Shown here: piece after piece, positions 7,535 to 28,091 of the stretch
How the letters are laid out: each line of letters starts with the position of its first letter
How positions within the stretch are numbered: the first letter of the stretch is position 1
NCBI GenBank assembly: GCA_964409365.1
Contig: CAYPCX010000001.1
Span: 128,684 to 192,683 of the forward strand
Direction: 5' to 3'
DNA from: an uncultured Planctomycetia bacterium
Lineage (GTDB): Bacteria; Omnitrophota; Gorgyraeia; Tantalellales; Tantalellaceae
DNA length: 64,000 nt
Translations under genes and position numbers: made by a program
The notes under the pieces: generated by a model
The model's database searches: none
What the model saw: the letters and a program-made list of their open reading frames with translations, nothing else
Told to the model about the DNA's origin: nothing

Positions 7535-9057
7535 GGATCTTGTTCGTTTTGCCGAACGTGGCCGAGATAGGAGTGAAACCTATAGGGCTTTCGTTGTTGA
7601 GCGCGATATGCAGGGATCGCGGGTATAGCGTGGACCTTTTTGACACGACGTTCTATGAGTTCTCCGAGATAGACGATTTCACCAATAATGCGGCCGTGTA
7701 CGCGGACAAGAACCAGTCGAGGTCCGTTGATTATGAAAAAGCGGGAGTAAAAAAAGAGAAAGTCGATCTGCGGGAGCGCCTTCATGACAAGTTATCGGAA
7801 TATCGGCCCGACGTGTGCGCTTTTACCGTGATGACCTCCGACAGGGACCTGTGCGGGAAGATGTCGGACTATATAAAGGAATATGATGACGGGATCCAGA
7901 TCATCTGGGGCGGGATCTATCCGACGTCATCTCCGGAGGAGGCCATTTCCTATACATCAGTGGACCATATATGTTGTTACGAGGGCGTAGAGGCCTTTCC
8001 GGAACTCCTGGAGGCGATCGAAGAAGGGAAGGACACGGGTAATATAAAGAATATCTATACCAAGCGGGACGGAAGTATCATCAAGAACGAGATACGGCCT
8101 AAATTCATGCAGCTGGACAGCCTGCCTTATCTGGACTGGGAGATCTTTGATAAGAGAAAATTTTTAAGACCGTTCAAGGGAAAGCTCATAAGAGGCGGGG
8201 AGTTCATGTCCGTTGTAGGGTGCCCCAGCAGCTGCACTTACTGCATGAATAACTGGCTTAACAGAGAGGACCGGCGTATCAGGAGGTATTCGCCGAAAAG
8301 GATCATTGAAGAATTGAAATACCAGAAAGAAAAATATGATCTCGAATTCCTGACCTTCAGGGACGATGATTTTCTCGTACGCCCGATGGGTGAATTGACC
8401 GAACTTGCCGAGTTGTATAAGACCGAGATCGGCCTGCCTTTTTCCATGCAGGCCAATTCACGGTTCGTGACGGAGGAGAAGGTGGAGATCGTGAAAAATA
8501 TGGGAGTGCATTCGGTGAACATAGGTATCGAATCGGGTAATGAGTATATCCGTAAGGAGGTCTTGAAAAGACAGGACAGCATGGAAGAAATAGAGAACGC
8601 CTTTAAGTGGTTCAACGCGGCCGGGATAGAGACGCATTCGTTGAATATGATCGGCCTGCCGTTCGAGACCAGAGAGACCATTTTTGAAACGATCGAATTC
8701 ATAAGGAAAATAAAGCCGACCATCAGCTACGTAAGTATTTTTTACCCGTTCGAGAGGACGGAACTGTACGACCTGTGTATAGAGAAGAAGTGGTTCGATC
8801 CCGAGGAAAGCAGGCAAATAGACATTCTCAGGTTCTCGGCCTTGAAATTGCCGGGCATATCCGGCGAAGAGGTCGAGGGCATAAATAAGTGTTTCAGTAT
8901 GTACGTTAAATTCCCGAGATCATTATGGCCGCTCATCAGGCGGGCCGAAAAGAACAACAAGGAAGGTAAGGAGCTGTTCAAACTCTTGAGCGATATGTAT
9001 TCCAGTAACATACTGGAGAGAACGCGAACTTTTCCGGGGGAGGAGATCCACATATGA
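7531..9057 (+). CDS. Cobalamin-binding (class B) radical SAM enzyme
   Basis: N-terminal B12-binding-like domain (MRILFVLPNVAEIGVKPIGLSLLSAI) followed by a CxxxCxxC cluster motif (GCPSSCTYCMN) and a radical SAM core (HSVNIGIESGN). Confidence 0.8.
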   Translation: MRILFVLPNVAEIGVKPIGLSLLSAICRDRGYSVDLFDTTFYEFSEIDDFTNNAAVYADKNQSRSVDYEKAGVKKEKVDLRERLHDKLSEYRPDVCAFTVMTSDRDLCGKMSDYIKEYDDGIQIIWGGIYPTSSPEEAISYTSVDHICCYEGVEAFPELLEAIEEGKDTGNIKNIYTKRDGSIIKNEIRPKFMQLDSLPYLDWEIFDKRKFLRPFKGKLIRGGEFMSVVGCPSSCTYCMNNWLNREDRRIRRYSPKRIIEELKYQKEKYDLEFLTFRDDDFLVRPMGELTELAELYKTEIGLPFSMQANSRFVTEEKVEIVKNMGVHSVNIGIESGNEYIRKEVLKRQDSMEEIENAFKWFNAAGIETHSLNMIGLPFETRETIFETIEFIRKIKPTISYVSIFYPFERTELYDLCIEKKWFDPEESRQIDILRFSALKLPGISGEEVEGINKCFSMYVKFPRSLWPLIRRAEKNNKEGKELFKLLSDMYSSNILERTRTFPGEEIHI

Positions 9058-9863
9058 AAAGCGACAGAACACCGGTTAACGCGGCGATAAAAGAACCCCG
9101 GGGACCTGTTGACAAGATAAGGACGCGATGGGGATTTATTTTCAGGTCGTTCAGGTTGAACATCAGGACATTGCTCGCGTGTAAAAGTCTTATTGACGAC
9201 TATAGACATGAATTAAAGACTATCAATTTGGGCGAGCGTTCCCCGGTCGGATGGTTTACTTACCCGTTCCTGGAACATCTGGGATCATGTGATCTGTCGA
9301 AGTCGAAAGTGTTCGAATGGGGAGGAGGATATTCAAGTCTGATGTGGTCCGACCGCTGTAAGAAGGTGGTTACGGTCGAGAGCAACAGCCAATGGTTCGA
9401 ATATATCAAGAGCAGGTCCTTGGACCTTGAGAATATGGATCTGATCCTGGCGCAGGATCGGGATTCTTATATCGGCTATTTTGACGAACACAGGGGATCG
9501 GATATCGTATTGATCGACGGGCGCTGGAGATATGATTGCGCGGCGACGGTCCTGGAAAAAATATCCCCTTCGGCAGTGATCATATTGGATAATTCGGAAT
9601 GGTGTCCTGATACGTGTTCGTTGCTGCGGGCGCGGGGGTACGCGCGGATCGATTTTCCGGGGTTCGGGCCCTGTAATCAGTTCACCTGGTGCACATCGAT
9701 ATTCTTTAAGTCGCTGGATAACCCGTTGCTGAATCCCGTTAACTGTCCGTCCAGCGCCGGCGGTATATTACTCGAACGATCGGGCTATATGTTCGCAGGG
9801 GAGCATGAGAAGGCTCCCGAAAACTCGGAGGAACAATGCCGGAAAACTCATCCCATTACTTAG
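9054..9863 (+). CDS. Putative class I SAM-dependent methyltransferase
   Basis: FEWGGGYSSLMWSDRCKKVVTVESN (glycine-rich SAM motif I-like) and DIVLIDGRWRYDCA (motif post-I/II-like). Weak family assignment. Confidence 0.45.
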   Translation: MKSDRTPVNAAIKEPRGPVDKIRTRWGFIFRSFRLNIRTLLACKSLIDDYRHELKTINLGERSPVGWFTYPFLEHLGSCDLSKSKVFEWGGGYSSLMWSDRCKKVVTVESNSQWFEYIKSRSLDLENMDLILAQDRDSYIGYFDEHRGSDIVLIDGRWRYDCAATVLEKISPSAVIILDNSEWCPDTCSLLRARGYARIDFPGFGPCNQFTWCTSIFFKSLDNPLLNPVNCPSSAGGILLERSGYMFAGEHEKAPENSEEQCRKTHPIT

Positions 9864-10622: not shown

Positions 10623-11549
10623 ATGGATATCAGCAAAGAACAACCGTTAGTTTCGGTGGGCATACCCACATACGACCGGCCTGAAGGCCTGCGCCGGGCG
10701 CTTGAGTGCATCACCGGGCAGACTTACAGGAACATAGAGATCATAGTATCTGATAACTGTTCACCGGGAGAGGCAACGCAGGATGTCATCCGGGATTTCA
10801 TGAAGAAAGACCCCAGGATCCGGCACTACAGGCAGGACAGGAACAAAGGGGCGTTTTTTAACGGCCTGTTCGTGCTCGAGAAGGCTGCCGGAAAATATTT
10901 TATGTGGGCGGCCGACGATGACAGATGGGACAGGCGTTTTATAGAGAAATGCCTGGAAAAAATGGATGATAATACCGTCTTGTGTTTCAGTGAATCCATG
11001 GTCACGTACCCGGACGGTAAGGAGGATTTTTTGCCTTCAAAAAAGGTCACAAAGGGCTTAAGCAAGGCGGAGGGCCTCAGGAGGCTGCTTCTTGACCAGA
11101 GAAGGAACAGGGAGTTCTACGGCGTCATGAGGACGGATATCGCCCGAAAATACAAGTTCACGCGTACTTACGGGGAAGATCATGTCTTTTTGTTCTATTT
11201 GGGGCTGAAAGGCGAAGTGGTAAAAACGGAACCGGGCCTGTTCTTCACCAATTTCGCTTCTTCAGGATACAGGTCGGAAGAAGAAGCGCTGAAGTCGAAT
11301 AAATACCCGAGACGTTTCCTGTATTTCGGGTATATCTACCAGATGGTGGAGACCATGAAGGCGCTTTACAGGTACGGCGACGGAATCAAGCGGTCGGACA
11401 AACTGAAGATACTTTATTGGATATTCCATAAATATTTTTTCGTCCATCATTTCAATTATAATATCCGTCTTAAGTTCAAAAGGTTCTTTAAAGACCTTTT
11501 CAACGGGCGGCTAAAAGGGGAAGGAGAACGGTATGAGCCTGAAGCCTAA
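10623..11549 (+). CDS. Glycosyltransferase family 2
   Basis: VSVGIPTYDRPEGLRRALECITGQTYRNIEIIVSDNCS.., the classic GT2 N-terminal DxD-containing domain. Confidence 0.8.
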   Translation: MDISKEQPLVSVGIPTYDRPEGLRRALECITGQTYRNIEIIVSDNCSPGEATQDVIRDFMKKDPRIRHYRQDRNKGAFFNGLFVLEKAAGKYFMWAADDDRWDRRFIEKCLEKMDDNTVLCFSESMVTYPDGKEDFLPSKKVTKGLSKAEGLRRLLLDQRRNREFYGVMRTDIARKYKFTRTYGEDHVFLFYLGLKGEVVKTEPGLFFTNFASSGYRSEEEALKSNKYPRRFLYFGYIYQMVETMKALYRYGDGIKRSDKLKILYWIFHKYFFVHHFNYNIRLKFKRFFKDLFNGRLKGEGERYEPEA

Positions 11550-12303
11550 ACTTAAAAAAGGCGAGACCACGCTGGGTTCATGGATAACGATAGGAGACCC
11601 GTCGATAGCCGAGATCATGGCATGCGCCGGTTTTGACTGGCTTGTGGTGGATATGGAGCACAGCGCTATCGGCTTGAACGAGGCCCAGCGGCTTATAAGG
11701 GTGATAGAACTGGCGGGTTGTGTGCCTCTGGTGAGAGTGGGGAATAACGATCCGAACCTGATCAAGCGCGTTATGGACGCCGGGGCGCACGGCGTTATCG
11801 TTCCCATGGTGAATACCAGGGAAGAAGCCGTGCGGGCCGTGGAAGCGGTAAGGTATCCGCCTCTGGGAAAAAGGGGCGTAGGCCTGGCGCGGGCGCAGGG
11901 TTACGGCTTCGGCTTCGAACAGTATAAAAAGTGGGTGAATAACGAAAGCGTCGTTATAGTCCAGACAGAGCACATTGACGGGGTGAAGAACCTCGAGGAG
12001 ATACTGGGTGTCGACGGGGTGGACGGTTTTATCGTAGGACCGTATGATCTTTCGGGGTCCCTCGGGAGGCCCGGTGACTTTGCTCATGCGAAGATGAAAA
12101 AAGCCCTCGAAAGAGTAGAAAAGATCTCTAAAAAGTCCGGGAAGGCCGCGGGCATACATGTGATACAGCCGGACCCGCAGGAGGCTGAGAAAAGGATCAA
12201 AGAGGGATATAATTTTGTGGCATTCAGTCTTGATACGCTTTTCCTGGGCACGTGTTGCAGGGAAGGGGTCAGAGGAATAAAGAAAGCGGGACGGAAGAAA
12301 TGA
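11533..12303 (+). CDS. HpcH/HpaI-family class II (pyruvate/2-oxoacid) aldolase
   Basis: LGSWITIGDPSIAEIMACAGFDWLVVDMEHS..VRVGNNDPNLIKRVMDAGAHGVIVPMVNTREEA..LGKRGVG is the HpcH/HpaI/GarL/RhmA aldolase signature. Confidence 0.8.
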   Translation: MSLKPKLKKGETTLGSWITIGDPSIAEIMACAGFDWLVVDMEHSAIGLNEAQRLIRVIELAGCVPLVRVGNNDPNLIKRVMDAGAHGVIVPMVNTREEAVRAVEAVRYPPLGKRGVGLARAQGYGFGFEQYKKWVNNESVVIVQTEHIDGVKNLEEILGVDGVDGFIVGPYDLSGSLGRPGDFAHAKMKKALERVEKISKKSGKAAGIHVIQPDPQEAEKRIKEGYNFVAFSLDTLFLGTCCREGVRGIKKAGRKK

Positions 12304-13070
12304 GAATAGTAGGCATTATACCGGCGCGCATGGCGTCGACGAGATTCCCGGGCAAGCCGCTTGCCGATATAATGGGCAGACCCATGATCCACCATGTCTA
12401 TTTCAGGAGCGGTCTTTGCACTAAGCTCGACGAGCTGTACATCGCAACCTGCGACAGGGAGATAAGGGATTACTGCGAAGATAACGGCATAAAGGTCGTG
12501 ATGACCAAAGATACACATGAGAGAGCGTCGGACAGGGCGGCCGAGGCCATTTCCAAAATAGACAGAAGGACCGGAAAAAGGACGGACATCGTCGTGATGA
12601 TACAGGGAGACGAACCCCTGGTGCTTCCCGAGATGATCGACAGGTCCCTGAGGCCCATTCTGCGCGACAAAAGTATAGACATCGTGAACCTGATGGCGCC
12701 CATCGGTTCAAAGAAGGAACAGAAAGATCCCAACCTCGTTAAAGTGGTAGTGGACAGGGATGACTTCGCCCTTTACTTCTCCAGGGAACCTATCCCATCG
12801 TGGAAAAAAGGGGCAAAAGACGTCCCCATGTATAAACAGGTGCCGATAATACCTTTTACCAGGGATTTTTTGACGAAGTTCAACCGCCTTTCGGCGACGC
12901 CGCTGGAAGTCATCGAGTCTGTTGACATGCTCAGGGTCATGGAGCACGGTTACAAGGTAAAGATGGTGCCGGTCTCTTACGGCACGCAGAGCGTGGATAC
13001 ACTGGAGGACCTTGAAAAGGTCCGGAAAATGATGAAAAAAGACAAGTTATTCAGAAAGAGGTACGAATAA
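12300..13070 (+). CDS. CMP-sugar synthetase (KdsB/NeuA-family acylneuraminate/3-deoxy-ulosonate cytidylyltransferase)
   Basis: MRIVGIIPARMASTRFPGKPLADIMGRPMI is the KdsB/NeuA CTP-transferase N-terminal motif. Start ATG 12300 overlaps the aldolase stop (ATGA). Confidence 0.8.
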   Translation: MRIVGIIPARMASTRFPGKPLADIMGRPMIHHVYFRSGLCTKLDELYIATCDREIRDYCEDNGIKVVMTKDTHERASDRAAEAISKIDRRTGKRTDIVVMIQGDEPLVLPEMIDRSLRPILRDKSIDIVNLMAPIGSKKEQKDPNLVKVVVDRDDFALYFSREPIPSWKKGAKDVPMYKQVPIIPFTRDFLTKFNRLSATPLEVIESVDMLRVMEHGYKVKMVPVSYGTQSVDTLEDLEKVRKMMKKDKLFRKRYE

Positions 13071-14899
13071 TGATCATTTTAGGGATAGTCGATTCACATA
13101 ACGCTTCCGCCTGTATAGCTATCGACGGTAAAATAGTCGCGGCAGTGCAGGAAGAGCGTTTCACGAAAAGAAAAACGGAAGTCGGTTTCCCCCGGAACTC
13201 GATAGACTACGTGGTAAAAGAAGCCGGCATCAAAAAAGAGGATATAGACCTGGTCGGCATAGCCAACTATAAATACAATCCCGGGCAGATGCTAATCAAA
13301 AGGGAAGCGAATTTCACCATCCAGGATTACATCCGGGAACAGTATGATTACTGGCTGCCCAAACTTTCGGGAAAACCCTTCAAGCCGTACCAGGAACTCT
13401 ACCCTCAATATTATCATCCGGAAAAGCTTCCTTATGATTTCGGCAAGATGGACCTTAAGGTCGGCAGCGCGGAAGAATTCTATAAAGTGAGGATAAAGAC
13501 GATAGCGAATTACCTTAATATCGACGTATCGAAGGTCGTGCACGTTCCGCACCATCACGCGCATGCTTATTACGCTTATTTCGCTTCACCTATAAGGGAT
13601 GAAGATACGGCAGTCGTTACCGCCGACGGGTGGGGGGACGGGTTCAATTCCATAATAGGTTCGTTCTCGAAGAACGACTTCAACTTTGTCTGGGGCATGA
13701 CCGGCAACCAGCTCGCCCGCATGTACAGGTATATAACCCTTCTTCTCGGGATGAGGCCGCTGGAGCATGAGTTCAAGGTAATGGGCCTGGCCCCGTACGC
13801 CATGCCGTACCATTATGAACCGGTCATAAAGGAACTCGAGGGACTTTTGAAGGTCGACGGCCTGGAAGTGGTCATGACGAAAAAAGAACCGGACTGGTAT
13901 TTCTGCCTTAAGGACCGGCTGGAAGGGCACAGGTTCGACGGTATAGCCGGGGGCGCGCAGATATTCCTCGAGAGGATCCTTTGCAAGTGGTTCAGCAATA
14001 TAGCGGAGCACATGGGTATCAGGAAGTTCGTTTTCAGCGGCGGAACTTCCATGAACATAAAAGCCAATATGGAGATACTGGGCCTGGATTGTATAGATTA
14101 TCTGGGCGTCCCGGCTTCCGGGAGCGACGAATCCATATCCATCGGCGTGTGTTATTATCTGATGAAGGAAAAATACGGCGTGATCGGGGAACCTCTTACA
14201 CATATGTACCTGGGGCCGGACATAAACGAAGACGAGATCAAGCGGGTCATAAACTGCGCTACCCTGAGGGATTTTGAGGTAGTGGATAAGATCAGCAATA
14301 AGTATATCGCCGAGCGGCTGGTCGAAGGGGACATTGTGGGTGTGGCGCGCGGGAGAATGGAATTCGGTGCGAGGGCTTTGGGCAACCGGAGCATTCTGGC
14401 CGACCCGAGGAGTTCCGAGACCGTCAGGAAGATAAATACCGCGATAAAAAGGAGGGATTTCTGGATGCCCTTCGCGCCGACGATAAAAGACACCTATCTC
14501 GACGAGGTCCTTATTAACGATAAGAACGTCTATTCCCCCTTCATGACGGTAGGGTTCAGGACGAAAGAGAAGGCGAAAGAGACCATGATCGCCGCGCTTC
14601 ATCCGTGGGACTTCACTGCCAGGCCGCAGATGTTAAGGGAAGAGGTCAACAGGGACTATTACGAGGTCATAACGGAATTCGAGAAGATGACAGGCGTGGG
14701 AGCGGTGCTTAATACGTCTTTAAATCTGCACGGTACGCCCATAGTCACTGACGTTAAAGATTCCGTAAAGGTCTTTCTTAATTCCGACCTGGACATGATA
14801 GTTTTGAACGATATAGCGATAAAAAGAAGAAGAGACGGGCGTTCCCGGGTTCGGGAAGAGTCATCTGCCGAGCCGGTCGTTTCCAAAAAGGCGGTGTAA
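13070..14899 (+). CDS. Carbamoyltransferase (NodU/CmcH/TobZ family)
   Basis: MIILGIVDSHNASACIAIDGKIVAAVQEERFTKRK (YrdC/Kae1-like N-domain of O-carbamoyltransferases). Conserved HHHAHAYYAYF block. 609 aa. Confidence 0.85.
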   Translation: MIILGIVDSHNASACIAIDGKIVAAVQEERFTKRKTEVGFPRNSIDYVVKEAGIKKEDIDLVGIANYKYNPGQMLIKREANFTIQDYIREQYDYWLPKLSGKPFKPYQELYPQYYHPEKLPYDFGKMDLKVGSAEEFYKVRIKTIANYLNIDVSKVVHVPHHHAHAYYAYFASPIRDEDTAVVTADGWGDGFNSIIGSFSKNDFNFVWGMTGNQLARMYRYITLLLGMRPLEHEFKVMGLAPYAMPYHYEPVIKELEGLLKVDGLEVVMTKKEPDWYFCLKDRLEGHRFDGIAGGAQIFLERILCKWFSNIAEHMGIRKFVFSGGTSMNIKANMEILGLDCIDYLGVPASGSDESISIGVCYYLMKEKYGVIGEPLTHMYLGPDINEDEIKRVINCATLRDFEVVDKISNKYIAERLVEGDIVGVARGRMEFGARALGNRSILADPRSSETVRKINTAIKRRDFWMPFAPTIKDTYLDEVLINDKNVYSPFMTVGFRTKEKAKETMIAALHPWDFTARPQMLREEVNRDYYEVITEFEKMTGVGAVLNTSLNLHGTPIVTDVKDSVKVFLNSDLDMIVLNDIAIKRRRDGRSRVREESSAEPVVSKKAV

Positions 14900-14900
14900 T

Positions 14901-15971
14901 ATGAAGAAAGATTATCCTTTAAAAGTAGGTATAGCGGGCTTCGGTGTTGTGGGCAAGCGCCGCAGACAGTTCATAGACCAGCACCCGAGCATGCGCACGA
15001 CGGCCGTATGCGACCAGAAGTTCGAGGGGTCGGGCACCATGCCGGACGGCGTGAAATTCTACACGAACTACAAGGAGCTTCTTAAGGAACAGCTGGACGT
15101 TCTTTTCGTGTGCCTCCCCAATTACCTGGCGGCCGATGTCACCATAGCGGGCCTCGAGAAAAGCATGCACGTTTTTTGTGAAAAGCCGCCGGGGAGGAAC
15201 ATCGAAGACATACTCCGCGTGATAGAGGTCGAGAAGAGGAATCCCGGTCTTGTATTGAAATACGGGTTCAACCACCGTTATCATGATTCGGTGCGCGAGG
15301 CCATGAGGATCGTTAACTCCGGCGAGCTCGGGGAGGTCGTTAACCTGCGCGGTGTCTACGGTAAAAGCAAGATCATACCTTTTGAGGGCGGATGGCGCGC
15401 CGAAAGAAAATACTCGGGCGGCGGGATACTCCTCGACCAGGGGATCCACATGGTGGACCTCATGGGCCTTTTCTGCGGCGATTTCAGGGACATAAAGAGC
15501 TACGTATCGAACGATTACTGGAACCATGACGTCGAGGACAACGCTTTCGCCATCATGAAGGACGAAAAAGGGCGCATAGCCATGCTGCATTCCAGCGCGA
15601 CGCAATGGGAACACAAATTCTCCCTGGATATAGCCCTGAGCGAAGGGTACCTGGAGCTCGCGGGGATACTGTCCGGCTCCAAAAGCTACGGCCAGGAGAA
15701 GCTTACCATCGGCAAAAGATCCGAGGCCGCCGTCGGCACGATGCAGGAAGAGACCCTGACGTACCTGGAGGACAACTCCTGGCGCGACGAGATATACGAA
15801 TTCGCCGGGGCCGTTACGAACGGTACCGGCATAGAACACGGTACCAGCGAAGAGGCCCTCAAGACAATGAGGGTCGTCTACCGCATCTATTATGCCGACA
15901 AAGCATGGAGGAAGGCCTATGATATAGCCGACCCCGACGCCATCGAAACGACAATAAAAGGAGCGAAATAA
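14901..15971 (+). CDS. Gfo/Idh/MocA-family NAD(P)-dependent oxidoreductase
   Basis: LKVGIAGFGVVGKRRRQFI Rossmann N-terminus. CEKPPG motif typical of Gfo/Idh/MocA (EKP). Confidence 0.8.
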   Translation: MKKDYPLKVGIAGFGVVGKRRRQFIDQHPSMRTTAVCDQKFEGSGTMPDGVKFYTNYKELLKEQLDVLFVCLPNYLAADVTIAGLEKSMHVFCEKPPGRNIEDILRVIEVEKRNPGLVLKYGFNHRYHDSVREAMRIVNSGELGEVVNLRGVYGKSKIIPFEGGWRAERKYSGGGILLDQGIHMVDLMGLFCGDFRDIKSYVSNDYWNHDVEDNAFAIMKDEKGRIAMLHSSATQWEHKFSLDIALSEGYLELAGILSGSKSYGQEKLTIGKRSEAAVGTMQEETLTYLEDNSWRDEIYEFAGAVTNGTGIEHGTSEEALKTMRVVYRIYYADKAWRKAYDIADPDAIETTIKGAK

Positions 15972-16588
15972 TGAGTAATATAGACAGTATCATCAACAGT
16001 TCCCCGGATGTGTCACAGTTCGCGAAAGGTTATTTCGAGTACATATCGAAACTGACCGCACAGCTTGATACGGAGGCCATATCCGCTTTTGTAAAAGAGC
16101 TGGAATCCGCGCGAAAAGACCATAACACGGTCTTTTTCGTGGGTAACGGCGGCTCTGCCGCCACCGCTTCGCACATGGCGAACGACCTCGCTTTCGGTTC
16201 ACGTGTCCATCAGGACCCTCCGTTCCGCGTCCTTTCGCTCACGGACAACGTCGCCGCCATGACGGCCGTAGCTAACGATAACGGCTATGAAAGTCTTTTC
16301 ATACGCCAGCTCAAGGTCCATTACAGGCCCGGCGACAAGCTCGTGGCGATATCGGCCAGCGGCAATTCCCCGAACGTGGTGACAGCGGCCGAATGGGTGA
16401 AAGAGCAGGGCGGGAAGGTCATAGGACTTGTGGGTTTCGACGGAGGGAAGCTCAGGGACATCTGCGACATAACGATATGCATAGAGACCCCCAAAGGGGA
16501 ATACGGCCCGGTGGAGGACGTGCACATGATGCTTGATCACCTCATATATACCTGGATATGGTACAGGAAACGCAAGGGAGATATCTGA
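15971..16588 (+). CDS. SIS-domain sugar-phosphate isomerase (GmhA-like / single-domain arabinose-5-P isomerase-like)
   Basis: VFFVGNGGSAATASHMANDL and VAISASGNSPNVV are SIS-domain motifs. 205 aa with no CBS domains. Confidence 0.75.
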   Translation: MSNIDSIINSSPDVSQFAKGYFEYISKLTAQLDTEAISAFVKELESARKDHNTVFFVGNGGSAATASHMANDLAFGSRVHQDPPFRVLSLTDNVAAMTAVANDNGYESLFIRQLKVHYRPGDKLVAISASGNSPNVVTAAEWVKEQGGKVIGLVGFDGGKLRDICDITICIETPKGEYGPVEDVHMMLDHLIYTWIWYRKRKGDI

Positions 16589-17526
16589 TGGGTTCTCTGG
16601 CAGGCGAGAAGGTATTGATAGGGCCGTCCTCGTTCGCGGCGATGGATCCATCTCCCATGGATATGCTGGTGAAGGCGGGAGCGGAGGTCGTGGACAACCC
16701 TTACAAGAGGCGGCTGACAAAAGACGAGCTCAGGGCCCTTCTTACAGAAGGCATAACAGGCCTGATAGCCGGGCTTGAGCCGTTAGACAGGGATGTCCTG
16801 TCGTCTTCAGGCCTTAAGGTGATATCCCGTTGCGGATCCGGCATGTCCAACGTGGATACCAAAGCGGCGGATGAACTGGGCATACTGGTGCGTTACACCC
16901 CCGACGCGCCCGTGGAATCCGTGGCGGAACTGGCGCTGGGCGCCATGTTGTCCCTTTTGAGGATGGTCCCGCTCATGGACAGCCAGCTGCACGAAGGCAA
17001 GTGGACAAAGAAAATAGGGACCCTCTTGGAAGGGAAAACGGTCGCTATCATCGGGTTCGGCCGAATAGGCAGGCGCTTGAGCGAACTTCTCGCGCCCTTC
17101 AACGCGAAAGTGCTTGCGGTGGACCCTTTTCTTGACGGGGGCGTGGATGAATACGATATCGTATCTCTCAATGCGGCGCTTCCCCAGGCGGACATTATCA
17201 GTATCCATTCAAGCGGGGAGGCTTGTGTGCTGGGACAGGAAGAGTTCGATATGATGAAGAGGGGCGCGTTTCTTCTGAACGTCGCTAGGGGCTCACTGGT
17301 TGAAGAGAACGCCCTTGTCAAGGCGCTGGATGAAGGACGGATAGCCGGGGCGTATCTTGATGTATTCTGGCAGGAACCGTACACGGGACCGCTTGTGAAA
17401 TACCCCCAGGTGATATTAACGCCCCACGTGGGCTCGTATACGAAAGAATGCAGGAAGAGGATGGAGACCGAAGCTGCCGATAATCTTATAGAGGCGTTCG
17501 GAAAAATAAAGGGAGGTCAAATATGA
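16588..17526 (+). CDS. D-isomer-specific 2-hydroxyacid dehydrogenase family protein
   Basis: GKTVAIIGFGRIGRRLSELL NAD-binding motif. Conserved R/E/H region (LLNVARGSLVEENAL..TPHVGSYT). Start ATG 16588 overlaps the upstream stop (TGATG). Confidence 0.8.
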   Translation: MGSLAGEKVLIGPSSFAAMDPSPMDMLVKAGAEVVDNPYKRRLTKDELRALLTEGITGLIAGLEPLDRDVLSSSGLKVISRCGSGMSNVDTKAADELGILVRYTPDAPVESVAELALGAMLSLLRMVPLMDSQLHEGKWTKKIGTLLEGKTVAIIGFGRIGRRLSELLAPFNAKVLAVDPFLDGGVDEYDIVSLNAALPQADIISIHSSGEACVLGQEEFDMMKRGAFLLNVARGSLVEENALVKALDEGRIAGAYLDVFWQEPYTGPLVKYPQVILTPHVGSYTKECRKRMETEAADNLIEAFGKIKGGQI

Positions 17527-18263
17527 ACATTGACTTCAAAGGCAAGAGGGTGCTCGTGACCGGCGCCACGCGCGGTATAGGCAGGAAAATAGCCGAAGAC
17601 CTGGCCGAAGCCGGTGCGGAGCTCATACTGACCGGCACGAATGAGGACGAGATAAAAAAGCTGAACTTATCCGGCGGGCCCAACATGAAATATTACCGCG
17701 TGGATTTCACCGACACGGGCAGCGTGGAGGGTTTCCTGAAGGAGCTCGGGAAGTTCGACAGGATCGATGTGTGCATCAACAATGCCGGTATCAACAAGAT
17801 CGATCTTATAGACGAAGTGGAAGACAAGGACTGGGACGATATCATAGCCGTTAACCTTAAGGGCCCGTTCCTTCTCACCAGGGCGGTCAGCGGCATCATG
17901 AAGAAGAACGGTTACGGCCGGATAGTGAATATCGCCTCCATATTCGGCGTCGTTAGCAAGGAAAAGAGGTCCACGTATTCGACGACGAAGTTCGGGCTTA
18001 GAGGCATGACGAAAGCCGCTTCGAATGAGCTTGCCGGATACGGGGTCCTGGTGAATGCCGTATCGCCCGGGTTCGTGCTTACGGACCTTACCAGGAGCAT
18101 ATTAAGCGAGAAAGAGATGAAAGAGATCGCGCAGCGGGTGCCGGCCAAACGGCTGGCCCAGCCGGAGGATATATCAAAGGTGGTACTGTTCCTGGCCAGC
18201 GACCTCAATACGTACCTGACCGGAAAGAACATAGTAGTGGACGGAGGGTTCATAGATGTCTGA
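17523..18263 (+). CDS. Short-chain dehydrogenase/reductase (FabG-like)
   Basis: VLVTGATRGIGRKIAEDL (TGxxxGIG) and NNAG motif. 246 aa. Confidence 0.85.
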   Translation: MNIDFKGKRVLVTGATRGIGRKIAEDLAEAGAELILTGTNEDEIKKLNLSGGPNMKYYRVDFTDTGSVEGFLKELGKFDRIDVCINNAGINKIDLIDEVEDKDWDDIIAVNLKGPFLLTRAVSGIMKKNGYGRIVNIASIFGVVSKEKRSTYSTTKFGLRGMTKAASNELAGYGVLVNAVSPGFVLTDLTRSILSEKEMKEIAQRVPAKRLAQPEDISKVVLFLASDLNTYLTGKNIVVDGGFIDV

Positions 18264-19329
18264 TAAATTCACCGTAAGGTCGAGGATAAGGGAGTATACC
18301 GTTGAGTTCACGGACCACCTGAAGGCCCTGGAGAAATGCGCCGGGGAAGGGGCTTTCCTGGTCCTGGATGAAAAGGTGGGCGAGTTGTACGGCGGTAAGA
18401 TGAAGGAGTTTTTCGCGCCGGAGAAGATCCTGATGGTCCATGCCGACGAGGAAAGCAAGACGCTCCGCGGATGCCAGGGTCTCATAAAGGAGCTTATCGA
18501 GAGGGGCATACGCAGGAACAATAAGCTCGTCGCCGTGGGCGGCGGCGTGATAGAAGATATCGCCGGGTTCATGAGCACCGTGATATTCAGGGGCATAGAA
18601 TGGGTATTTATCCCGACCACGCTCCTGGCGCAGGCCGATAGCTGTATAGGCAGCAAGAGTTCGATAAACCTGGGGCGGTACAAGAACATGCTGGGGTCTT
18701 TCTATCCCCCGTCGAACGTTTACATCGATGTGGAGTTCCTCAAGACGCTGCCGGAGAGCGAGATAAAGTCAGGCATAGGCGAGGTGCTGCACTTTTACCT
18801 CATTGCCGGGGAAGAGGAGCTGGCGGGCAGGATGATGTCGGAATATGACGCGATTTTGGCCGACCCCGGGAAGATGAAGGATTATATATTGCCGAGCCTC
18901 CTGATAAAAAAGAGCGTTATCGAGGTGGACGAACTTGATAAGAATGAGAGGAACATATTCAATTACGGGCACACATTCGGCCATGCGATCGAGACAGTCA
19001 CCTCGTACGGCATAAACCACGGCCAGGCGGTCACGATGGGCATGGATATGGCCAATTACATCTCCATGAAGAAGGGATATATAAAGGAAGAGGTATTTGA
19101 CCGCCTGCACGGCATACTGGCTAGAAATATGCCCGATTTCGCGCTCTCGGAGGAGTCCTCCGACGGTTATTTCAAGGCGCTATCGAAGGATAAGAAGAAC
19201 GTAGGTGCTGACCTGGGCTGCATATTGACAAAGGGACCGGGTAAGATGTTCAAGGAACTGGTTCCGATGAACAGGGTTTTCAAGGACGATATATTTGAGT
19301 ATTTCGGGAGGAGAACACCGGACAGATGA
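18256..19329 (+). CDS. 3-dehydroquinate-synthase-like sugar-phosphate cyclase superfamily enzyme
   Basis: GGGVIEDIAGFMSTVIFRGIEWVFIPTTLLAQADSCIGSKSSINLGRYKNMLGSFYPPSNVYIDVEFLKTLPESE and NYGHTFGHAIE match AroB/EEVS/DOIS-family motifs. Confidence 0.75.
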   Translation: MSDKFTVRSRIREYTVEFTDHLKALEKCAGEGAFLVLDEKVGELYGGKMKEFFAPEKILMVHADEESKTLRGCQGLIKELIERGIRRNNKLVAVGGGVIEDIAGFMSTVIFRGIEWVFIPTTLLAQADSCIGSKSSINLGRYKNMLGSFYPPSNVYIDVEFLKTLPESEIKSGIGEVLHFYLIAGEEELAGRMMSEYDAILADPGKMKDYILPSLLIKKSVIEVDELDKNERNIFNYGHTFGHAIETVTSYGINHGQAVTMGMDMANYISMKKGYIKEEVFDRLHGILARNMPDFALSEESSDGYFKALSKDKKNVGADLGCILTKGPGKMFKELVPMNRVFKDDIFEYFGRRTPDR

Positions 19330-20069
19330 TCATCTCACATAAGTACAAGTTCATATTTATTAAAAACTGGAAAACAGCCAGCACCAGTATAGAAGGTTAC
19401 CTGGCAAAGTACTGCGGGCAGGATGACGTTATCGCGACAGTCCCTTCGGCCATCGGGATCGACGAAGAGAAAAACGTCAAAGGGCTTTTCAATCCGGTTC
19501 CGGAGATCCTGGATTGTAACAGGATCACCGTGGGCAGGGACTTTTTCGGGATCACGAGCATGCGCAGGACATTGAAGGATTTTGTCACCTTCACTAAGTT
19601 TTATAACCATATGCCTGCTTACCAGGTGCAGAGCAGGGTGCCGAAAAGGATATGGGACACTTATTATAAGTTCTGTTTTGAAAGGAGTCCCTGGGACAAG
19701 GTAATATCCAATTTCTTCATGCTGAAAGGCGCCCATGTGAGAAAATTCATGCCTGATCTTACTTTTGAAAAATATATGGAGGACAAGGTATTCTTATCAT
19801 GCCTGAACTATCCCCGGTATATGGATAATAAACGGCAGGAGAAGGTGATCGTGGACCATATCGGGAAGTATGAGGACCTGGACAGGGAGATGGGGAAGAT
19901 CTGCCAAAAGTTGAATATACCGTATGAGGGCACGCTTGGGATGCATATATACAAAAGCCCCGCTAAAGATGAGGAAAAGGAAGAATATAAGCGCTTACTT
20001 AAAGATAAATACAGCGAGTTGTTCTTGAAGTATTTCAACAAAGAACTGGAATTGTGGGAAAGATTATAA
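19326..20069 (+). CDS. Hypothetical protein, putative sulfotransferase-like
   Basis: N-terminal KFIFIKNWKTASTSIEGYL resembles the PAPS 5'-phosphosulfate-binding loop of Sulfotransfer_2-type proteins (PKxGxTS). The rest of the protein is unassigned. Confidence 0.35.
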   Translation: MIISHKYKFIFIKNWKTASTSIEGYLAKYCGQDDVIATVPSAIGIDEEKNVKGLFNPVPEILDCNRITVGRDFFGITSMRRTLKDFVTFTKFYNHMPAYQVQSRVPKRIWDTYYKFCFERSPWDKVISNFFMLKGAHVRKFMPDLTFEKYMEDKVFLSCLNYPRYMDNKRQEKVIVDHIGKYEDLDREMGKICQKLNIPYEGTLGMHIYKSPAKDEEKEEYKRLLKDKYSELFLKYFNKELELWERL

Positions 20070-20078
20070 GGGAATGAT

Positions 20079-21263
20079 ATGGTAAAGAAACTATTCACGG
20101 GATTAAGGGGATTCTGGCTCGCGCTGGGCGTGGTGCTTATGGTCCTTTTGTGCATGGAGGGCGCTTCGGGGCTTTTCCTGTACGTCAAGGAGGGGGTCTT
20201 GAGGTCCGTAGATCCCAGGGCGGAGGCGGACGTTTATGCCGGGGCCCAATGGACGGAGGATTTCTACAGGACGGCTCTTAAAATGGGCGGGGTAAGATGG
20301 CACCCTTATGTCTACTGGCGAAGGAAGGCATTCGAGAGCGAGTACATAAATGTGGATAAATACGGCGTACGAAAGACGTGGAACAGGGAAGCGTCCGCCG
20401 GAGAGAAGGGAGAGCCCTTCAAGATCTTCATGTTCGGGGGGTCAGCCATGTGGGGAACGGGCGCCAGGGACGACCATACGATACCCTCTTATCTATCTAA
20501 AATGCTGAGCGAAACGATTGAGCGCAGGGTGGAGGTAGTGAATTACGGTGAGATGGGATACGTCAACACTCAGGAGGTCGCCATGCTGCTTTACCAGCTG
20601 AGGAGAGGCAACGTGCCGGATATGGTGATCTTCTACGACAATATAAACGACATAGGGGCGGCCGCGCAGAACAGGGAGGCCGGCCTCACCAACAGCGAAT
20701 TTAACAGGGCCAGGGAATTCAACCTGCTGAACGAAGTGAGGCAGCAGGATCTTTACCTTGAGGCCGTAAGGAGCGCGGCGAAGAATTCTCCTACCATGCG
20801 CCTGATGAAAAAGGTATTGAGGAAGATAGGGCTGCTGAAAAAAGAGCCCCCCCAGGCGGGCTCGGACGGGAAGATCTCCGACAAGCTTGCCGACGATATA
20901 ATAAAGGTATATGAATCGAACATAAAGATGGTAGAGGCGCTGGGAAAAGAATATGGGTTCGAGTCTCTCTTTTACTGGCAGCCGATAGTTCTGGACAAAC
21001 CCCACCTTACGCCTTTCGAGAAGAAGCAGGCCAGGGAATGGATGTATTTCAAGGACTTTTATTTCCAGATGCACGGGAGAGTGGACGGATCGGGGTTCCT
21101 TTCTTCGGATCCCCGGTTCCGGGACTTGAGCGGGATCTTCGCAAATGCGAAAAAACCGTATTTTATAGATTTTTGCCACCTGGGAGAAGCGGGTAATGAG
21201 ATAGTGGCGGAAAACATGTACGAAGATGTGCTTCCGATCATCAAAAAAAGGGGAGAACAATGA
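20079..21263 (+). CDS. Membrane-anchored SGNH/GDSL-like hydrolase or acyl(acetyl)transferase accessory protein
   Basis: N-terminal TM helix (FWLALGVVLMVLLCM). FMFGGSAMWGTG block is a GDSL-block-I-like motif with G replacing D. The 255-aa antisense ORF 20493..21260 is taken as a shadow. Confidence 0.5.
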   Translation: MVKKLFTGLRGFWLALGVVLMVLLCMEGASGLFLYVKEGVLRSVDPRAEADVYAGAQWTEDFYRTALKMGGVRWHPYVYWRRKAFESEYINVDKYGVRKTWNREASAGEKGEPFKIFMFGGSAMWGTGARDDHTIPSYLSKMLSETIERRVEVVNYGEMGYVNTQEVAMLLYQLRRGNVPDMVIFYDNINDIGAAAQNREAGLTNSEFNRAREFNLLNEVRQQDLYLEAVRSAAKNSPTMRLMKKVLRKIGLLKKEPPQAGSDGKISDKLADDIIKVYESNIKMVEALGKEYGFESLFYWQPIVLDKPHLTPFEKKQAREWMYFKDFYFQMHGRVDGSGFLSSDPRFRDLSGIFANAKKPYFIDFCHLGEAGNEIVAENMYEDVLPIIKKRGEQ

Positions 21264-22222
21264 AGCTGGTGATACAGATACCGTGTCATAACGAAGAAGA
21301 GACCCTTCCGGTCACGTTGAAAGACCTGCCGTCGTCCATAGACGGGGTGGGTACCATCGAGAAGGTGGTCATCAACGACGGCTCAACGGATAATACGGTT
21401 GCCGCAGCGTGCGGGAACGGGGTGGACCACATCGTGAACCTGCCGTACAGGCGAGGCCTGGCCGAGGCTTTCAGGCAGGGCATAGAAAAGTCCCTGGAGC
21501 TTGGCGCCGATATTATCGTGAACACGGACGGGGATAACCAGTATAAAGGAGAGGATATCAAGAAGCTCATAAAGCCGATACTGGATAAAAAGGCGGATAT
21601 AGTGGTGGGCTGCCGCGATATCTCGACGATAGAGCATTTCTCGCCGCTGAAGAAACTTCTGCAGAAAGTGGGCAGCCACGTCGTGAGGAGGTTCTCCAGG
21701 ACGGATATCCCCGACACGACAAGCGGTTTCAGGGCGTATTCGAGGGACGCGGCGCTCAGGCTCAATGTCTTTTCCAATTACACGTACACCCTCGAGACGA
21801 TAATCCAGGCGGGCCGCAAAGAGATACCGATAACCCATGTCGAGATAGGCACGAACGAAAAATTAAGGGAATCCCGGCTCATCAAGAGCCTGCCGTCGTA
21901 CGTAGCCAGGTCCTGCGCCACCATGCTGCGCATATACCTTATGTACGAGCCGATGAAGTTCTTCACGAAGGTAGGGACGGTGATATTGTCGCTGGGCGCT
22001 CTGCTCGGCGTGAGGTACCTGTATTTTTTCTTTTTCACGGCCAGGCGCGGCGGACACATGCAGTCGTTGCTTCTCGGGGCGATATTGTTCCTTTCGGGGT
22101 TCATACTGGTCGTCATAGGGCTTCTGGCGGACGTGATAGCCGCGAACAGGAAGCTGAACGAGGAGATACTTTTCCGCCTGAAGAAGAGCGGGTTTTCGGA
22201 CAAGGTCAGGAACAAGGTTTAG
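21260..22222 (+). CDS. Polyprenyl-phosphate glycosyltransferase (GT2, GtrB/ArnC/DPM1-like) with C-terminal TM helices
   Basis: KLVIQIPCHNEEETLPVTLKDL..VVINDGSTDNT..VNTDGDNQY..DTTSGFRAY are GtrB/ArnC motifs. The hydrophobic C-terminus is typical of Und-P sugar synthases. Confidence 0.8.
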   Translation: MKLVIQIPCHNEEETLPVTLKDLPSSIDGVGTIEKVVINDGSTDNTVAAACGNGVDHIVNLPYRRGLAEAFRQGIEKSLELGADIIVNTDGDNQYKGEDIKKLIKPILDKKADIVVGCRDISTIEHFSPLKKLLQKVGSHVVRRFSRTDIPDTTSGFRAYSRDAALRLNVFSNYTYTLETIIQAGRKEIPITHVEIGTNEKLRESRLIKSLPSYVARSCATMLRIYLMYEPMKFFTKVGTVILSLGALLGVRYLYFFFFTARRGGHMQSLLLGAILFLSGFILVVIGLLADVIAANRKLNEEILFRLKKSGFSDKVRNKV

Positions 22223-27456: not shown

Positions 27457-27457
27457 G

Positions 27458-28090: not shown

Positions 28091-28091
28091 T

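Follow-up and report, generated by a model that had tools for sequence, protein, structure and literature searches.

A co-conserved gene cassette with an AroB-like enzyme in an Omnitrophota glycan locus and its putative role in making a CMP-activated sugar acid

Genes at the locus

The 64,000-nt stretch of DNA analysed here (the window; positions 128,684 to 192,683 of contig CAYPCX010000001.1, from an uncultured bacterium placed in the Omnitrophota by GTDB) contains nine open reading frames (ORFs) at 11533-20069 on the + strand, one of which encodes a relative of the dehydroquinate synthase (DHQS) AroB. A preliminary description of this DNA had read them as a nine-gene sugar-modification module, leading either to an ulosonic acid activated with cytidine monophosphate (CMP) or to a cyclitol-like residue. 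All nine ORFs start with ATG, the gaps between them range from -17 to +9 nt, purine-rich stretches precede the starts, and terminators are not in excess in this region. On public metagenome contigs of identical sequence, independent gene calling gave the same ORF boundaries, and the nine ORFs thus stand as described. The same is true for the families assigned to their products, on which Pfam and NCBIfam agree; the ninth protein has no Pfam match of its own and is supported via its homologues. The 2-hydroxyacid dehydrogenase is present, but its start is most likely 16588, with 16558 as an alternative upstream start. The ORFs are the following:

11533..12303, + strand: HpcH/HpaI class II (metal-dependent) pyruvate aldolase, 256 aa (PF03328, 130 bits), the candidate condensing enzyme
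12300..13070, + strand: KdsB-like CMP-transferase (CTP_transf_3), 256 aa (NF009905, 300 bits against a cut-off of 255)
13070..14899, + strand: NodU/CmcH/TobZ-type O-carbamoyltransferase, 609 aa (PF02543 and PF16861), between the KdsB-like and Gfo genes
14901..15971, + strand: Gfo/Idh/MocA NAD(P) oxidoreductase (Gfo), 356 aa (Pfam GFO_IDH_MocA)
15971..16588, + strand: GmhA-like single-domain SIS sugar-phosphate isomerase, 205 aa (SIS_2)
16588..17526, + strand: D-2-hydroxyacid dehydrogenase (HacDH) of the short phosphoglycerate dehydrogenase (PGDH) type, 312 aa (PF02826 and PF00389)
17523..18263, + strand: classical short-chain dehydrogenase/reductase (SDR), a FabG-like ketoreductase, 246 aa (adh_short; FabG-like PDB matches)
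18256..19329, + strand: AroB-like NAD+/metal enzyme of family TIGR04425, 357 aa (Pfam DHQ_synthase and DHQS_C)
19326..20069, + strand: sulfotransferase-family-2-like protein, 247 aa (no Pfam or NCBIfam match of its own), after the AroB-like gene

The genes are translationally coupled: the aldolase gene overlaps the CMP-transferase gene start-to-stop by 4 nt, as had been reported, and the SDR gene overlaps the AroB-like gene by 8 nt. Among the window ORFs scanned there is no KdsA, NeuB, HAD-type phosphatase or KdsC. This agrees with the earlier statement that a NeuB/KdsA-type synthase is lacking, and the gene sets for 3-deoxy-D-manno-oct-2-ulosonic acid (Kdo), Neu5Ac, legionaminic acid, pseudaminic acid and Kdn are not matched, since KdsA, NeuB and KdsC-type genes were not found.

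A seven-gene cassette shared across phyla

An alignment of the AroB-like protein was searched against one representative genome per GTDB species and against JGI metagenomes, and the neighbours in 160 AroB-like loci were scored by BLAST against the window proteins. Sixty-two non-redundant loci had at least 7 kb of upstream and at least 5 kb of downstream flank, and 28 of these carry at least two of the Gfo, SIS and HacDH genes next to the AroB-like gene (the core loci; single loci are given as L numbers). The SDR, Gfo and HacDH genes were each found in 27 of the 28 and the SIS gene in 25. CMP-transferases are present in 24 (KdsB-like in 17, NeuA-like in 9), HpcH in 15, and 11 contain the complete set of the window, namely HpcH aldolase, KdsB-like CMP-transferase, Gfo/Idh/MocA, GmhA-like SIS, PGDH-like HacDH, FabG-like SDR and AroB-like protein. 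Reading gene by gene showed the identical order HpcH-KdsB-Gfo-SIS-HacDH-SDR-DHQS in L089, L090 (Omnitrophota-labelled bin) and the Scalindua locus L005. Bins in which all seven are again found together include those of Planctomycetota (Scalindua), Omnitrophota-type bacteria, Acidobacteriota, Bacteroidota and Coxiellaceae; further carrier bins are labelled Patescibacteria, Bifidobacterium and Dehalococcoidia, and a few have archaeal labels (Thaumarchaeota). This gene arrangement is not due to chance but is a co-conserved cassette, probably a portable biosynthetic one, and the idea of a module instead of an accidental neighbourhood is borne out, since the same genes recur in related loci across phyla. 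Its size has to be revised, however. Seven genes are conserved, while homologues of the carbamoyltransferase, the sulfotransferase-like protein and the product of a tenth, SGNH-like gene were found next to the AroB-like gene in none of the 28 core loci. The unit is therefore a seven-gene cassette with three lineage-specific inserts.

The AroB-like protein had been assigned to the DHQS superfamily, and this is confirmed by its DHQ_synthase and DHQS_C domains and by a score of 424.4 bits with TIGR04425 (cut-off 400); relatives in L018 and L046 score 473 and 425 bits. TIGR04425 is curated as distinct from AroB, as a 'hypoth_equivalog' with the name 'AroB-related putative sugar phosphate phospholyase (cyclizing)'. 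With the aroB equivalog TIGR01357, the window protein reaches only 272 bits against a cut-off of 305, and it is 33% identical to E. coli AroB. PDB matches score 126-170 bits for DHQS chains, 136 for 2-deoxy-scyllo-inosose synthase (DOIS, 2d2x), 97 for desmethyl-4-deoxygadusol synthase (DDGS, 5tpr) and 92 for 2-epi-5-epi-valiolone synthase (EEVS, 4p53). We aligned 76 family members with E. coli AroB and found R120, D136, K142, N152, E184, K226, R240, N244, H247, H251, H264 and K323/324 (E. coli numbering) invariant in cassette proteins and in ordinary aroB-like genes. Going by the A. nidulans DHQS structure, these presumably include the residues that hold the carboxylate and the phosphate of 3-deoxy-D-arabino-heptulosonate 7-phosphate (DAHP). 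The only checked position that changed is K187, which is His in the window protein and in 10 of 17 related cassette proteins, with a weak trend towards loci with an aldolase (6/8 vs 2/7 loci). EEVS and DDGS replace the residues that bind the DAHP carboxylate, the counterparts of E. coli K226 and R240. An identity as EEVS, DDGS or DOIS was rejected because the best-scoring structures are DHQS and the counterparts of K226 and R240 are kept, and the 'sedoheptulose cyclase' or EEVS-like chemistry considered earlier is thus disfavoured: true DHQS is by far the nearer relative, and the structures of EEVS and DDGS are much more remote. A glycerol-1-phosphate dehydrogenase, which the preliminary description had named as a finding that would speak against it, was rejected too (NF002022, 39 bits against a cut-off of 413). 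A weak Pfam match to Fe-ADH_2 was also observed.

In a neighbour-joining tree the context-free aroB-like genes are basal and the proteins of the glycan cassettes make up a derived clade; between the two stands a branch linked to an enzyme dependent on thiamine diphosphate (ThDP) and resembling acetolactate synthase (ALS). At 39% identity or more, 67 of 89 loci have an SDR gene directly upstream of the AroB-like gene, vs 7 of 38 loci below that value (true-aroB-like loci included), and the SDR appears to be the obligate partner of the AroB-like gene. The context is not that of the shikimate pathway: the gene is located in a glycan operon, and its neighbours in the loci read are glycan genes, not aroK. 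A search of a plasmid collection with the AroB-like protein returned ordinary aroB matches only, at about 33% identity.

The best PDB match of the aldolase is YfaU (2vws, 168 bits), and it has the counterparts of YfaU H49, R74, E153 and D179, none of which varies among 19 orthologues. An identity as catabolic HpaI, GarL or RhmA, which would have counted against the proposed module, was rejected, since the scores remain far below all cut-offs (HpaI 199/369, GarL 179/407 and 178/393, RhmA 178/441 bits, score/cut-off). Conservation within the aldolase subfamily is high: cluster representatives that are 64-71% identical to the window protein number more than 120 and come from different phyla. As a reciprocal test, nine genomic contexts were picked from the list of aldolase matches and read gene by gene. 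A CTP_transf_3 gene was found near the aldolase in all nine, adjoining or at most two genes away in most, which confirms that aldolase and CMP-transferase are a conserved neighbouring pair; HacDH was present in eight, and glycan genes surround the aldolase in all nine. In these loci the aldolase is 64-70% identical to that of the window, and the KdsB-like partner 62-66% in the five loci with a match. The pair is conserved with or without the AroB-like gene.

The KdsB-like protein passes the subfamily models NF009905 and NF003952 and the kdsB model TIGR00466 (162.5 vs 155.2 bits) but fails the equivalog NF003948 (196 vs 281) and also NF003950 (212 vs 234), and its identity is 36% to E. coli KdsB vs 62-68% to the cassette orthologues. 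The catalytic R10, R15, K19, Q98, D100, R157 and D235 (E. coli numbering) are kept, whereas E. coli H181, Y185 and the ESLEQLR motif are altered. The substitutions Y11M, D50C, H51D, A106P, Y187F and E210D are cassette-wide; several of these positions and the altered motifs line the presumed sugar site.

Three other enzymes also keep the catalytic residues that were checked. The Gfo protein has the EKP motif and D179/H183 invariant in 36 orthologues, and its best PDB matches are inositol, glucose-fructose and sugar dehydrogenases. The SIS protein scores 106 bits with the GmhA model TIGR00441 (cut-off 209), its best PDB matches are all phosphoheptose isomerases (96 bits), and it retains the GmhA metal and catalytic counterparts D72, E182, H185 and H190 and the SGNSPN phosphate loop; D72, E182 and H190 correspond to B. 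pseudomallei GmhA E68, Q175 and H183. HacDH matches PGDH best (1wwk, 178 bits) but does not reach the SerA equivalog (197 vs cut-off 454); the R234/E263/H280 triad and the anion-site residues R81, W139 and K141 are invariant. In the loci read gene by gene, HacDH is no more than two genes away from the phosphate-removing enzyme, L173 excepted.

A phosphatase swap and the proposed pathway

Among the newly read aldolase loci, the AroB-like+SDR pair is present in L174 only (L089 and L090 had been read earlier). The AroB-less aldolase/CMP-transferase cassettes that were sampled contain a phosphatase in seven of seven cases. A haloacid dehalogenase (HAD) phosphatase is found in L173 (a Bacillaceae isolate), L175, L176, L177, L178 and L180, in five of these at most two genes from HacDH. 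In L179, which is otherwise orthologous to the window, an Inositol_P-family phosphatase lies exactly in the position of the SDR and AroB-like genes of the window, and the identities to the window proteins are 65% for HpcH, 66% for KdsB, 71% for Gfo, 62% for SIS, 65% for HacDH and 69% for the GT2 glycosyltransferase downstream. This phosphatase scores 111-128 bits with models for fructose-bisphosphatase (FBPase), inositol monophosphatase (IMPase) and HisN vs 85 with CysQ; a CysQ-type 3'-phosphoadenosine 5'-phosphate phosphatase serving sulfation is disfavoured, because CysQ scores lower and the L179 gene list contains no sulfotransferase. Homologues of the seven reference phosphatases were found in none of the 12 HpcH+KdsB cassettes that contain AroB-like+SDR. 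Phosphatase and AroB-like+SDR are thus swapped between cassettes (7/7 vs 0/12; about 2e-5 in a hypergeometric calculation of our own). We infer that a phosphorylated 2-keto sugar acid is the substrate and that the AroB-like protein and the SDR would act on it in place of the phosphatase, in the step that resembles that of KdsC.

The reading we prefer, and to which we give about an even chance, is that the cassette makes a CMP-activated 2-keto (ulosonic-acid-type) sugar acid, from which the phosphate would be removed via AroB-like elimination and the SDR. The GmhA-like isomerase would ready a sugar phosphate. A DAHP-like phosphorylated 2-keto sugar acid (hept-2-ulosonate 7-phosphate) would then be formed by HpcH from pyruvate and an aldose phosphate, and Gfo and the PGDH-like dehydrogenase might assist, either by oxidising first C1 and then C2 or through tailoring. 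AroB oxidises its substrate with NAD+ beside the CH2-O-phosphate-bearing carbon, eliminates the phosphate by beta-elimination and returns the hydride. Since the AroB pocket is conserved, the substrate of the AroB-like protein probably resembles DAHP; the enzyme would remove the phosphate by NAD+-dependent oxidation and beta-elimination and the SDR would reduce the resulting ketone, while in the sister cassettes the phosphate would be hydrolysed instead. The outcome might be a terminal-deoxy ulosonic acid, if the hydride ends up on the terminal carbon, which is what 4,6-dehydratases do, or an intermediate is captured by the SDR, or else a quinate-like carbocycle, if the full DHQS sequence takes place. 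Finally, the KdsB-like enzyme would form the CMP-sugar, and neighbouring glycosyltransferases would put the sugar into the glycan of the lipopolysaccharide (LPS) type that the locus encodes. HacDH is nearest to PGDH, an enzyme of phosphorylated 2-hydroxy acids, which we count in favour of this reading; genes of the 6-phosphogluconolactonase family (PF01182) or for 'cyclase' hydrolases recur in relatives.

The Kdo pathway consists of the isomerase KdsD, the Kdo8P synthase KdsA, the phosphatase KdsC and the CMP-Kdo synthetase KdsB. The proposed route resembles it in its SIS isomerase, its C3 addition to an aldose phosphate, its phosphate removal and its KdsB-family activation. It differs in that KdsA is lacking and the HpcH-family aldolase is the candidate condensing enzyme, and in that KdsC is lacking and AroB-like+SDR stand where sister cassettes carry a HAD or IMPase phosphatase. 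Characterised aldolases of the HpcH family use pyruvate. In addition, the cassette contains Gfo and PGDH-like dehydrogenases, its isomerase is GmhA-like and not a KdsD (SIS+CBS), and H181 and ESLEQLR of E. coli KdsB are not preserved in its transferase. With AroB and other sugar-phosphate cyclases the AroB-like protein has in common the two Pfam domains, the metal ligands and the active site except K187, and presumably also the elimination chemistry; low identity, the score below the aroB equivalog, the separate clade and the upstream SDR set it apart.

Nonulosonic-acid pathways combine NeuB/PseI/LegI synthases with NeuA-type CMP-transferases, and the Kdn pathway a Kdn-9-P synthase with a phosphatase. 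As in these pathways, the end product would be a CMP-activated ulosonic acid for surface glycans, and in some related cassettes the transferase is of the NeuA type and has NeuB, Maf-like and LIC12162-family genes as neighbours. However, the window has neither a synthase dependent on phosphoenolpyruvate (PEP) nor UDP- or GDP-sugar precursor steps, and the seven-gene set has no amino- or acetyltransferase. In the pathway to Kdo8N of Shewanella, KdnB, a metal-dependent alcohol oxidoreductase from the iron-alcohol-dehydrogenase group, and the aminotransferase KdnA act on Kdo before KdsB. The Fe-ADH_2 model that matches the AroB-like protein weakly is that of the KdnB group, the tail of the sugar would in both cases be modified upstream of KdsB-type activation, and relatives with a HisC-like gene add an aminotransferase; KdnB, however, oxidises a free C8 alcohol, whereas the AroB-like protein keeps the phosphate-binding and elimination set of AroB. 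An analogy can also be drawn with RmlB/RmlD (dTDP-glucose 4,6-dehydratase and 4-ketoreductase), in which a transient ketone allows a terminal beta-elimination and a separate reductase finishes the keto-deoxy sugar. A non-cyclising outcome of this kind would account for the obligate SDR partner. Here, the fold is unrelated, it is phosphate that would leave and not water, and the substrate would be a free sugar-acid phosphate and not a nucleotide sugar.

Several points weigh against the preferred reading. The chemical steps, their order, the C7 backbone and the structure of the product are predictions from sequence. Gfo, HacDH and HpcH are not all necessary and non-redundant in one linear scheme, and with all the checked AroB residues in place, cyclisation in the manner of AroB is the default expectation; the carboxylate- and phosphate-binding roles of these residues are assigned by analogy with A. 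nidulans DHQS. The test for phosphatases covers homology to seven reference phosphatases, and the NeuA-type mosaic loci L015 and L026 hold a HAD phosphatase and an AroB-like gene together. Most of the loci are metagenome bins, many of them truncated. Moreover, cassettes with the same core and a CMP-transferase have no aldolase (L118, L130, L142, L023 and the HisC-type loci), and since they exist the aldolase may not be the step that forms the 2-keto acid. An aldolase-based route, as proposed earlier, is thus likely for the window but is not universal.

The aldolase-less cassettes lead to the first alternative, an oxidative trunk, which we consider possible but less probable than the aldolase route. 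Here, the GmhA-like isomerase would convert sedoheptulose-7-phosphate to heptose-7-phosphate, Gfo would oxidise C1, joined in some relatives by a lactonase, and the PGDH-like enzyme C2, giving a hept-2-ulosonate 7-phosphate that is the 3-hydroxy analogue of DAHP; AroB-like+SDR would dephosphorylate it and the CMP-transferase activate it. The aldolase would not be the condensing enzyme; it might provide a parallel entry (pyruvate and erythrose-4-phosphate), an epimerisation or an exchange of C1-C3 units. Six-gene NeuA-SDR-DHQS-HacDH-Gfo-SIS cassettes (L118, L130, L142) and HisC-type loci without aldolase or NeuB nearby are consistent with such a trunk, as are the aldolase-less L023, the PF01182 lactonase-family genes in L015, L021, L027, L136, L138 and L150, the 'cyclase' hydrolase genes of relatives, the GmhA-like character of the SIS protein and the PGDH-like HacDH, which adjoins the phosphate-removing enzyme in most loci; each product would fit the canonical substrate class of the next enzyme. 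On the other hand, HpcH, the most conserved protein of the set (64-71% across phyla), would be left without a required role, its pairing with KdsB resembles a synthase-activase pair, and Gfo enzymes also oxidise C3 or other positions. L026 and L174, which have HpcH and AroB-like+SDR but no HacDH, also argue against the trunk and, together with the aldolase/CMP-transferase pair, favour a Kdo-like logic. For the origin of the keto-acid phosphate, both are compatible with the data. More elaborate schemes (a C10 sugar from heptose-7-phosphate and pyruvate, 3-phosphohydroxypyruvate as aldol donor, or an exchange of hydroxypyruvate and pyruvate) were set aside, as they offer no better match to the DAHP-type pocket or to the gene patterns as a whole.

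The second alternative concerns the outcome of the AroB-like step, which might be the full DHQS reaction. The product would be a quinate-like cyclitol carboxylic acid, reduced at its ketone by the SDR, with a tertiary OH retained beside the carboxylate, and charged with CMP as a 'carba-ulosonic acid'; in a variant, the aldolase would add pyruvate to the carbocycle, which would end up as a side ring within a bigger, bicyclic ulosonic acid. This is somewhat doubtful, although the checked AroB catalytic residues are retained family-wide, the name given by the NCBI curators contains '(cyclizing)', the best-scoring characterised relatives of Gfo include inositol dehydrogenases, which act on cyclitols, and the enol-pyranose intermediate of DHQS, according to the mechanistic literature, cyclises spontaneously. 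A carbocycle has no ring oxygen for ordinary CMP-sugar transfer, yet the cassette always occurs with CMP-transferases and glycosyltransferases. Furthermore, L179 keeps KdsB (66%) and GT2 (69%) despite its phosphatase, suggesting products that differ little, for instance in CH2OH vs CH3, and not as much as a pyranose and a carbocycle would. For bradyrhizose, the one glycan carbocycle whose pathway was checked, the cluster paper reports no DHQS-like gene; a link was rejected, as a search of its text gave no mention of dehydroquinate and the mutated cluster gene that it describes encodes a dTDP-glucose 4,6-dehydratase. It might also be that the AroB-like protein cyclises and that the CMP-activated carbocyclic (carba-)ulosonic acid is put into LPS or capsule by an unusual pseudo-glycosyltransferase, the candidates being TIGR04326 or LIC12162-type proteins or the conserved GT2, but we think this unlikely. 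Within the preferred reading, a terminal-deoxy product is probable and a carbocycle the lesser possibility: the phosphatase version keeps orthologous KdsB and GT2, so that the products should be close analogues, and a carbocycle could not be transferred by ordinary CMP-sugar glycosyl transfer.

It is very improbable that no dedicated pathway exists and that the genes are housekeeping or LPS-core genes that happen to be neighbours in an LPS megalocus (a canonical KdsB for Kdo, GmhA for core heptose, an aroB paralogue, assorted oxidoreductases) or a catabolic sugar-acid cluster: the KdsB-like protein does pass the kdsB cut-off of TIGR00466, three GT9 heptosyltransferases of the window would need heptose, and the oxidative catabolism of sugars typically involves dehydrogenases, lactonases and aldolases of the HpcH family, but the block recurs across phyla with the same order in the closest loci, the cassette KdsB orthologues are far closer to each other than to E. 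coli KdsB, the AroB-like clade stands apart from context-free aroB-like genes, the genes are translationally coupled, and the block is invariably surrounded by glycosyltransferase and flippase genes, with no transporter or regulator genes in any instance. Bifidobacterium, Dehalococcoidia and Patescibacteria, all labels of cassette carriers, are not known to make LPS, which counts against a housekeeping role as well.

A full-text search of a literature library found neither a published characterisation of the cassette nor a paper on TIGR04425. The new element would be that CMP-ulosonic-acid biosynthesis has recruited a shikimate-type enzyme where a phosphatase would be used otherwise, in a pathway in which every enzyme but the CMP-transferase differs from those of the Kdo or Kdn pathway. 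If this is true, CMP-sugar-acid pathways of a large and uncharacterised family occur over a broad range of phyla; in these, Kdo- or sialic-acid-like residues are built by an HpcH-family aldolase instead of a PEP-dependent synthase, and in one branch the AroB fold has the new job of making terminal-deoxy or carbocyclic acidic sugars. Thousands of 'AroB', 'KdsB', 'GmhA', 'SerA' and 'FabG' annotations in glycan loci would then probably be mis-assigned, and surface residues, here probably carbamoylated and sulfated, could be missed by standard glycan analysis. Should the AroB-like protein cyclise, a carbasugar would be a regular glycan residue made via a shikimate-type enzyme in many phyla. The swap of phosphatase and AroB-like genes offers a clean entry point for enzymology.

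Inserts, related cassettes and the surrounding glycan operon

Three further genes directly downstream complete the feature list:

20079..21263, + strand: GDSL/SGNH-like protein, 394 aa (Lipase_GDSL_2 weak, below cut-off), the third insert, outside 11533-20069
21260-22222, + strand: GT2 glycosyltransferase (Pfam), candidate transferase for the cassette sugar
22265-23335, + strand: GT4 glycosyltransferase (Pfam), candidate transferase for the cassette sugar

The carbamoyltransferase has two Carbam_trans domains (103 and 192 bits) and stays below the NodU equivalog (90 vs 1000); none of the 28 core loci contains a homologue, and no other cassette has one at the same position. The sulfotransferase-like ORF is about 40% identical to carriers of PF03567 (Sulfotransfer_2) named 'sulfotransferase family 2', and K16-T-A-S-T-S, resembling the 5'-phosphosulfate-binding loop for 3'-phosphoadenosine 5'-phosphosulfate (PAPS), H95, R120 and S128 are conserved. 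With its AF2 model (mean pLDDT 73), the top 50 PDB matches in Foldseek are all PAPS sulfotransferases, though weak (E ~1e-2, TM 0.3-0.4). L089 and L090 contain no carbamoyltransferase, sulfotransferase-like or GDSL-like gene; in these two loci and L179, GT2 follows the cassette directly or after one methyltransferase, without the SGNH-like gene. Similar genes recur around this sugar family, and it is therefore reasonable to infer that the sugar of this lineage is probably O-carbamoylated and sulfated, and also handled by an SGNH-type enzyme. The decoration predicted earlier is thus plausible, but the decorating genes are not part of the conserved unit. ATP sulfurylase, adenosine 5'-phosphosulfate kinase and Sulfotransfer_3 genes lie directly upstream of HpcH-KdsB in L180 (6074-9997; Omnitrophota-labelled bin), a Sulfotransfer_3-like gene lies within the cassette of L174 (8275-9336), and a carbamoyltransferase and a GDSL gene adjoin HpcH in L178 (4569-8437; Nealsonbacteria-labelled contig).

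TIGR04425, of which the window protein is a member, also covers a second cassette, with an ALS-like ThDP enzyme, an SDR, the AroB-like protein and an FGGY-like kinase (for example L046 7482-11017 and L052 8341-12383). Loci of this type are L024, L029, L034-L061, L158, L163, L164 and L170. A HAD protein, a PseI/NeuB-like synthase and an HMGL-like aldolase, which is extended at its C-terminus by a long uncharacterised region, are often added. The carriers include Lachnospiraceae/Butyrivibrio isolates and bins labelled Halobacteriales, Methanomassiliicoccales, cyanobacteria and Verrucomicrobia. Butyrivibrio sp. MB2005 is a cultured carrier of this ThDP type, and Ferdinandcohnia sp. Marseille-Q9671 one of the phosphatase type.

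Another exchange was seen among the KdsB-type AroB-like cassettes, 11 of which have HpcH, five a HisC-like class I/II aminotransferase, one both and none neither. The HisC-like gene is usually accompanied by a second Gfo-like gene. In the HpcH/HisC comparison, L008, L018, L021, L092, L106, L134, L153 and L154 form one group and L005, L010, L013, L089, L090, L097, L099, L101, L102, L143 and L145 the other; since both types interleave in the AroB-like tree, the two modules appear to have been swapped often. The Balneolaceae chromosome of L015 (2000-11000) carries two apparently complete modules side by side, aldolase/HacDH/NeuA/epimerase/HAD and HacDH/Gfo/SIS/SDR/AroB-like/NeuA, which suggests separable pathways.

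Large uncharacterised proteins are encoded near cassettes, belonging to TIGR04326 ('surface carbohydrate biosynthesis protein'), TIGR04331/PF27859 (LIC12162 family transferase) and TIGR04417 (PFTS motif). They were seen in L008 (12377-14317), L005 (11099-13087), L018 (4862-6688), L021 (4365-5993), L179 (5396-7243) and L180 (15418-17178) and are candidate transferases for the cassette sugar; none of the three families occurs among the window ORFs scanned. The GT2 of the window is syntenic and 63-76% identical in L089, L090, L175 and L179. In L089 and L090, GT2-GT4 lie directly 3' of the cassette, and L090 then shares the radical-SAM/GT1/RtcB block of the window.

Positions 1 to about 58 kb of the window form a single long glycan locus, all on the + strand, and the GC skew is positive over the full 64 kb. 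Located 5' of the cassette are dTDP-sugar genes, C- and O-methyltransferases, glycosyltransferases and a B12-radical-SAM gene, and 3' of it GT2, GT4 and GT1 genes, a second radical-SAM gene and a block of RtcB, kinase and membrane protein genes. The region 31523-58000 (+ strand) is an LPS-type megalocus with ArnA/ArnD-like genes, including one for an ArnA-like formyltransferase, and with a polysaccharide deacetylase gene. It also encodes the three GT9 heptosyltransferases, a Wzy_C ligase and Bac_transf, as well as additional PMT_2 proteins, and contains a SPASM radical-SAM gene; PriA follows at 58808. An ORF of 269 aa inside the operon (9054-9863) has no Pfam or NCBIfam match. The B12-binding radical-SAM genes on both sides of the cassette (7531-9057 and 23325-24797) may C-methylate the same glycan or sugar; the same two radical-SAM Pfam domains are found about 1-4 genes from HpcH in L090, L175 and L179, while in L176 they occur at the edge of the locus. 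The block at 25930-30621 (15704-20304 in L090/L091) places genes for an RtcB-family RNA ligase and for thymidylate-kinase-like, LPG_synthase_TM and PMT_2-like proteins in the glycan operon. It also trails the cassette in the Omnitrophota-labelled bin, and an RNA-repair-type ligase kept in a glycan locus is odd.

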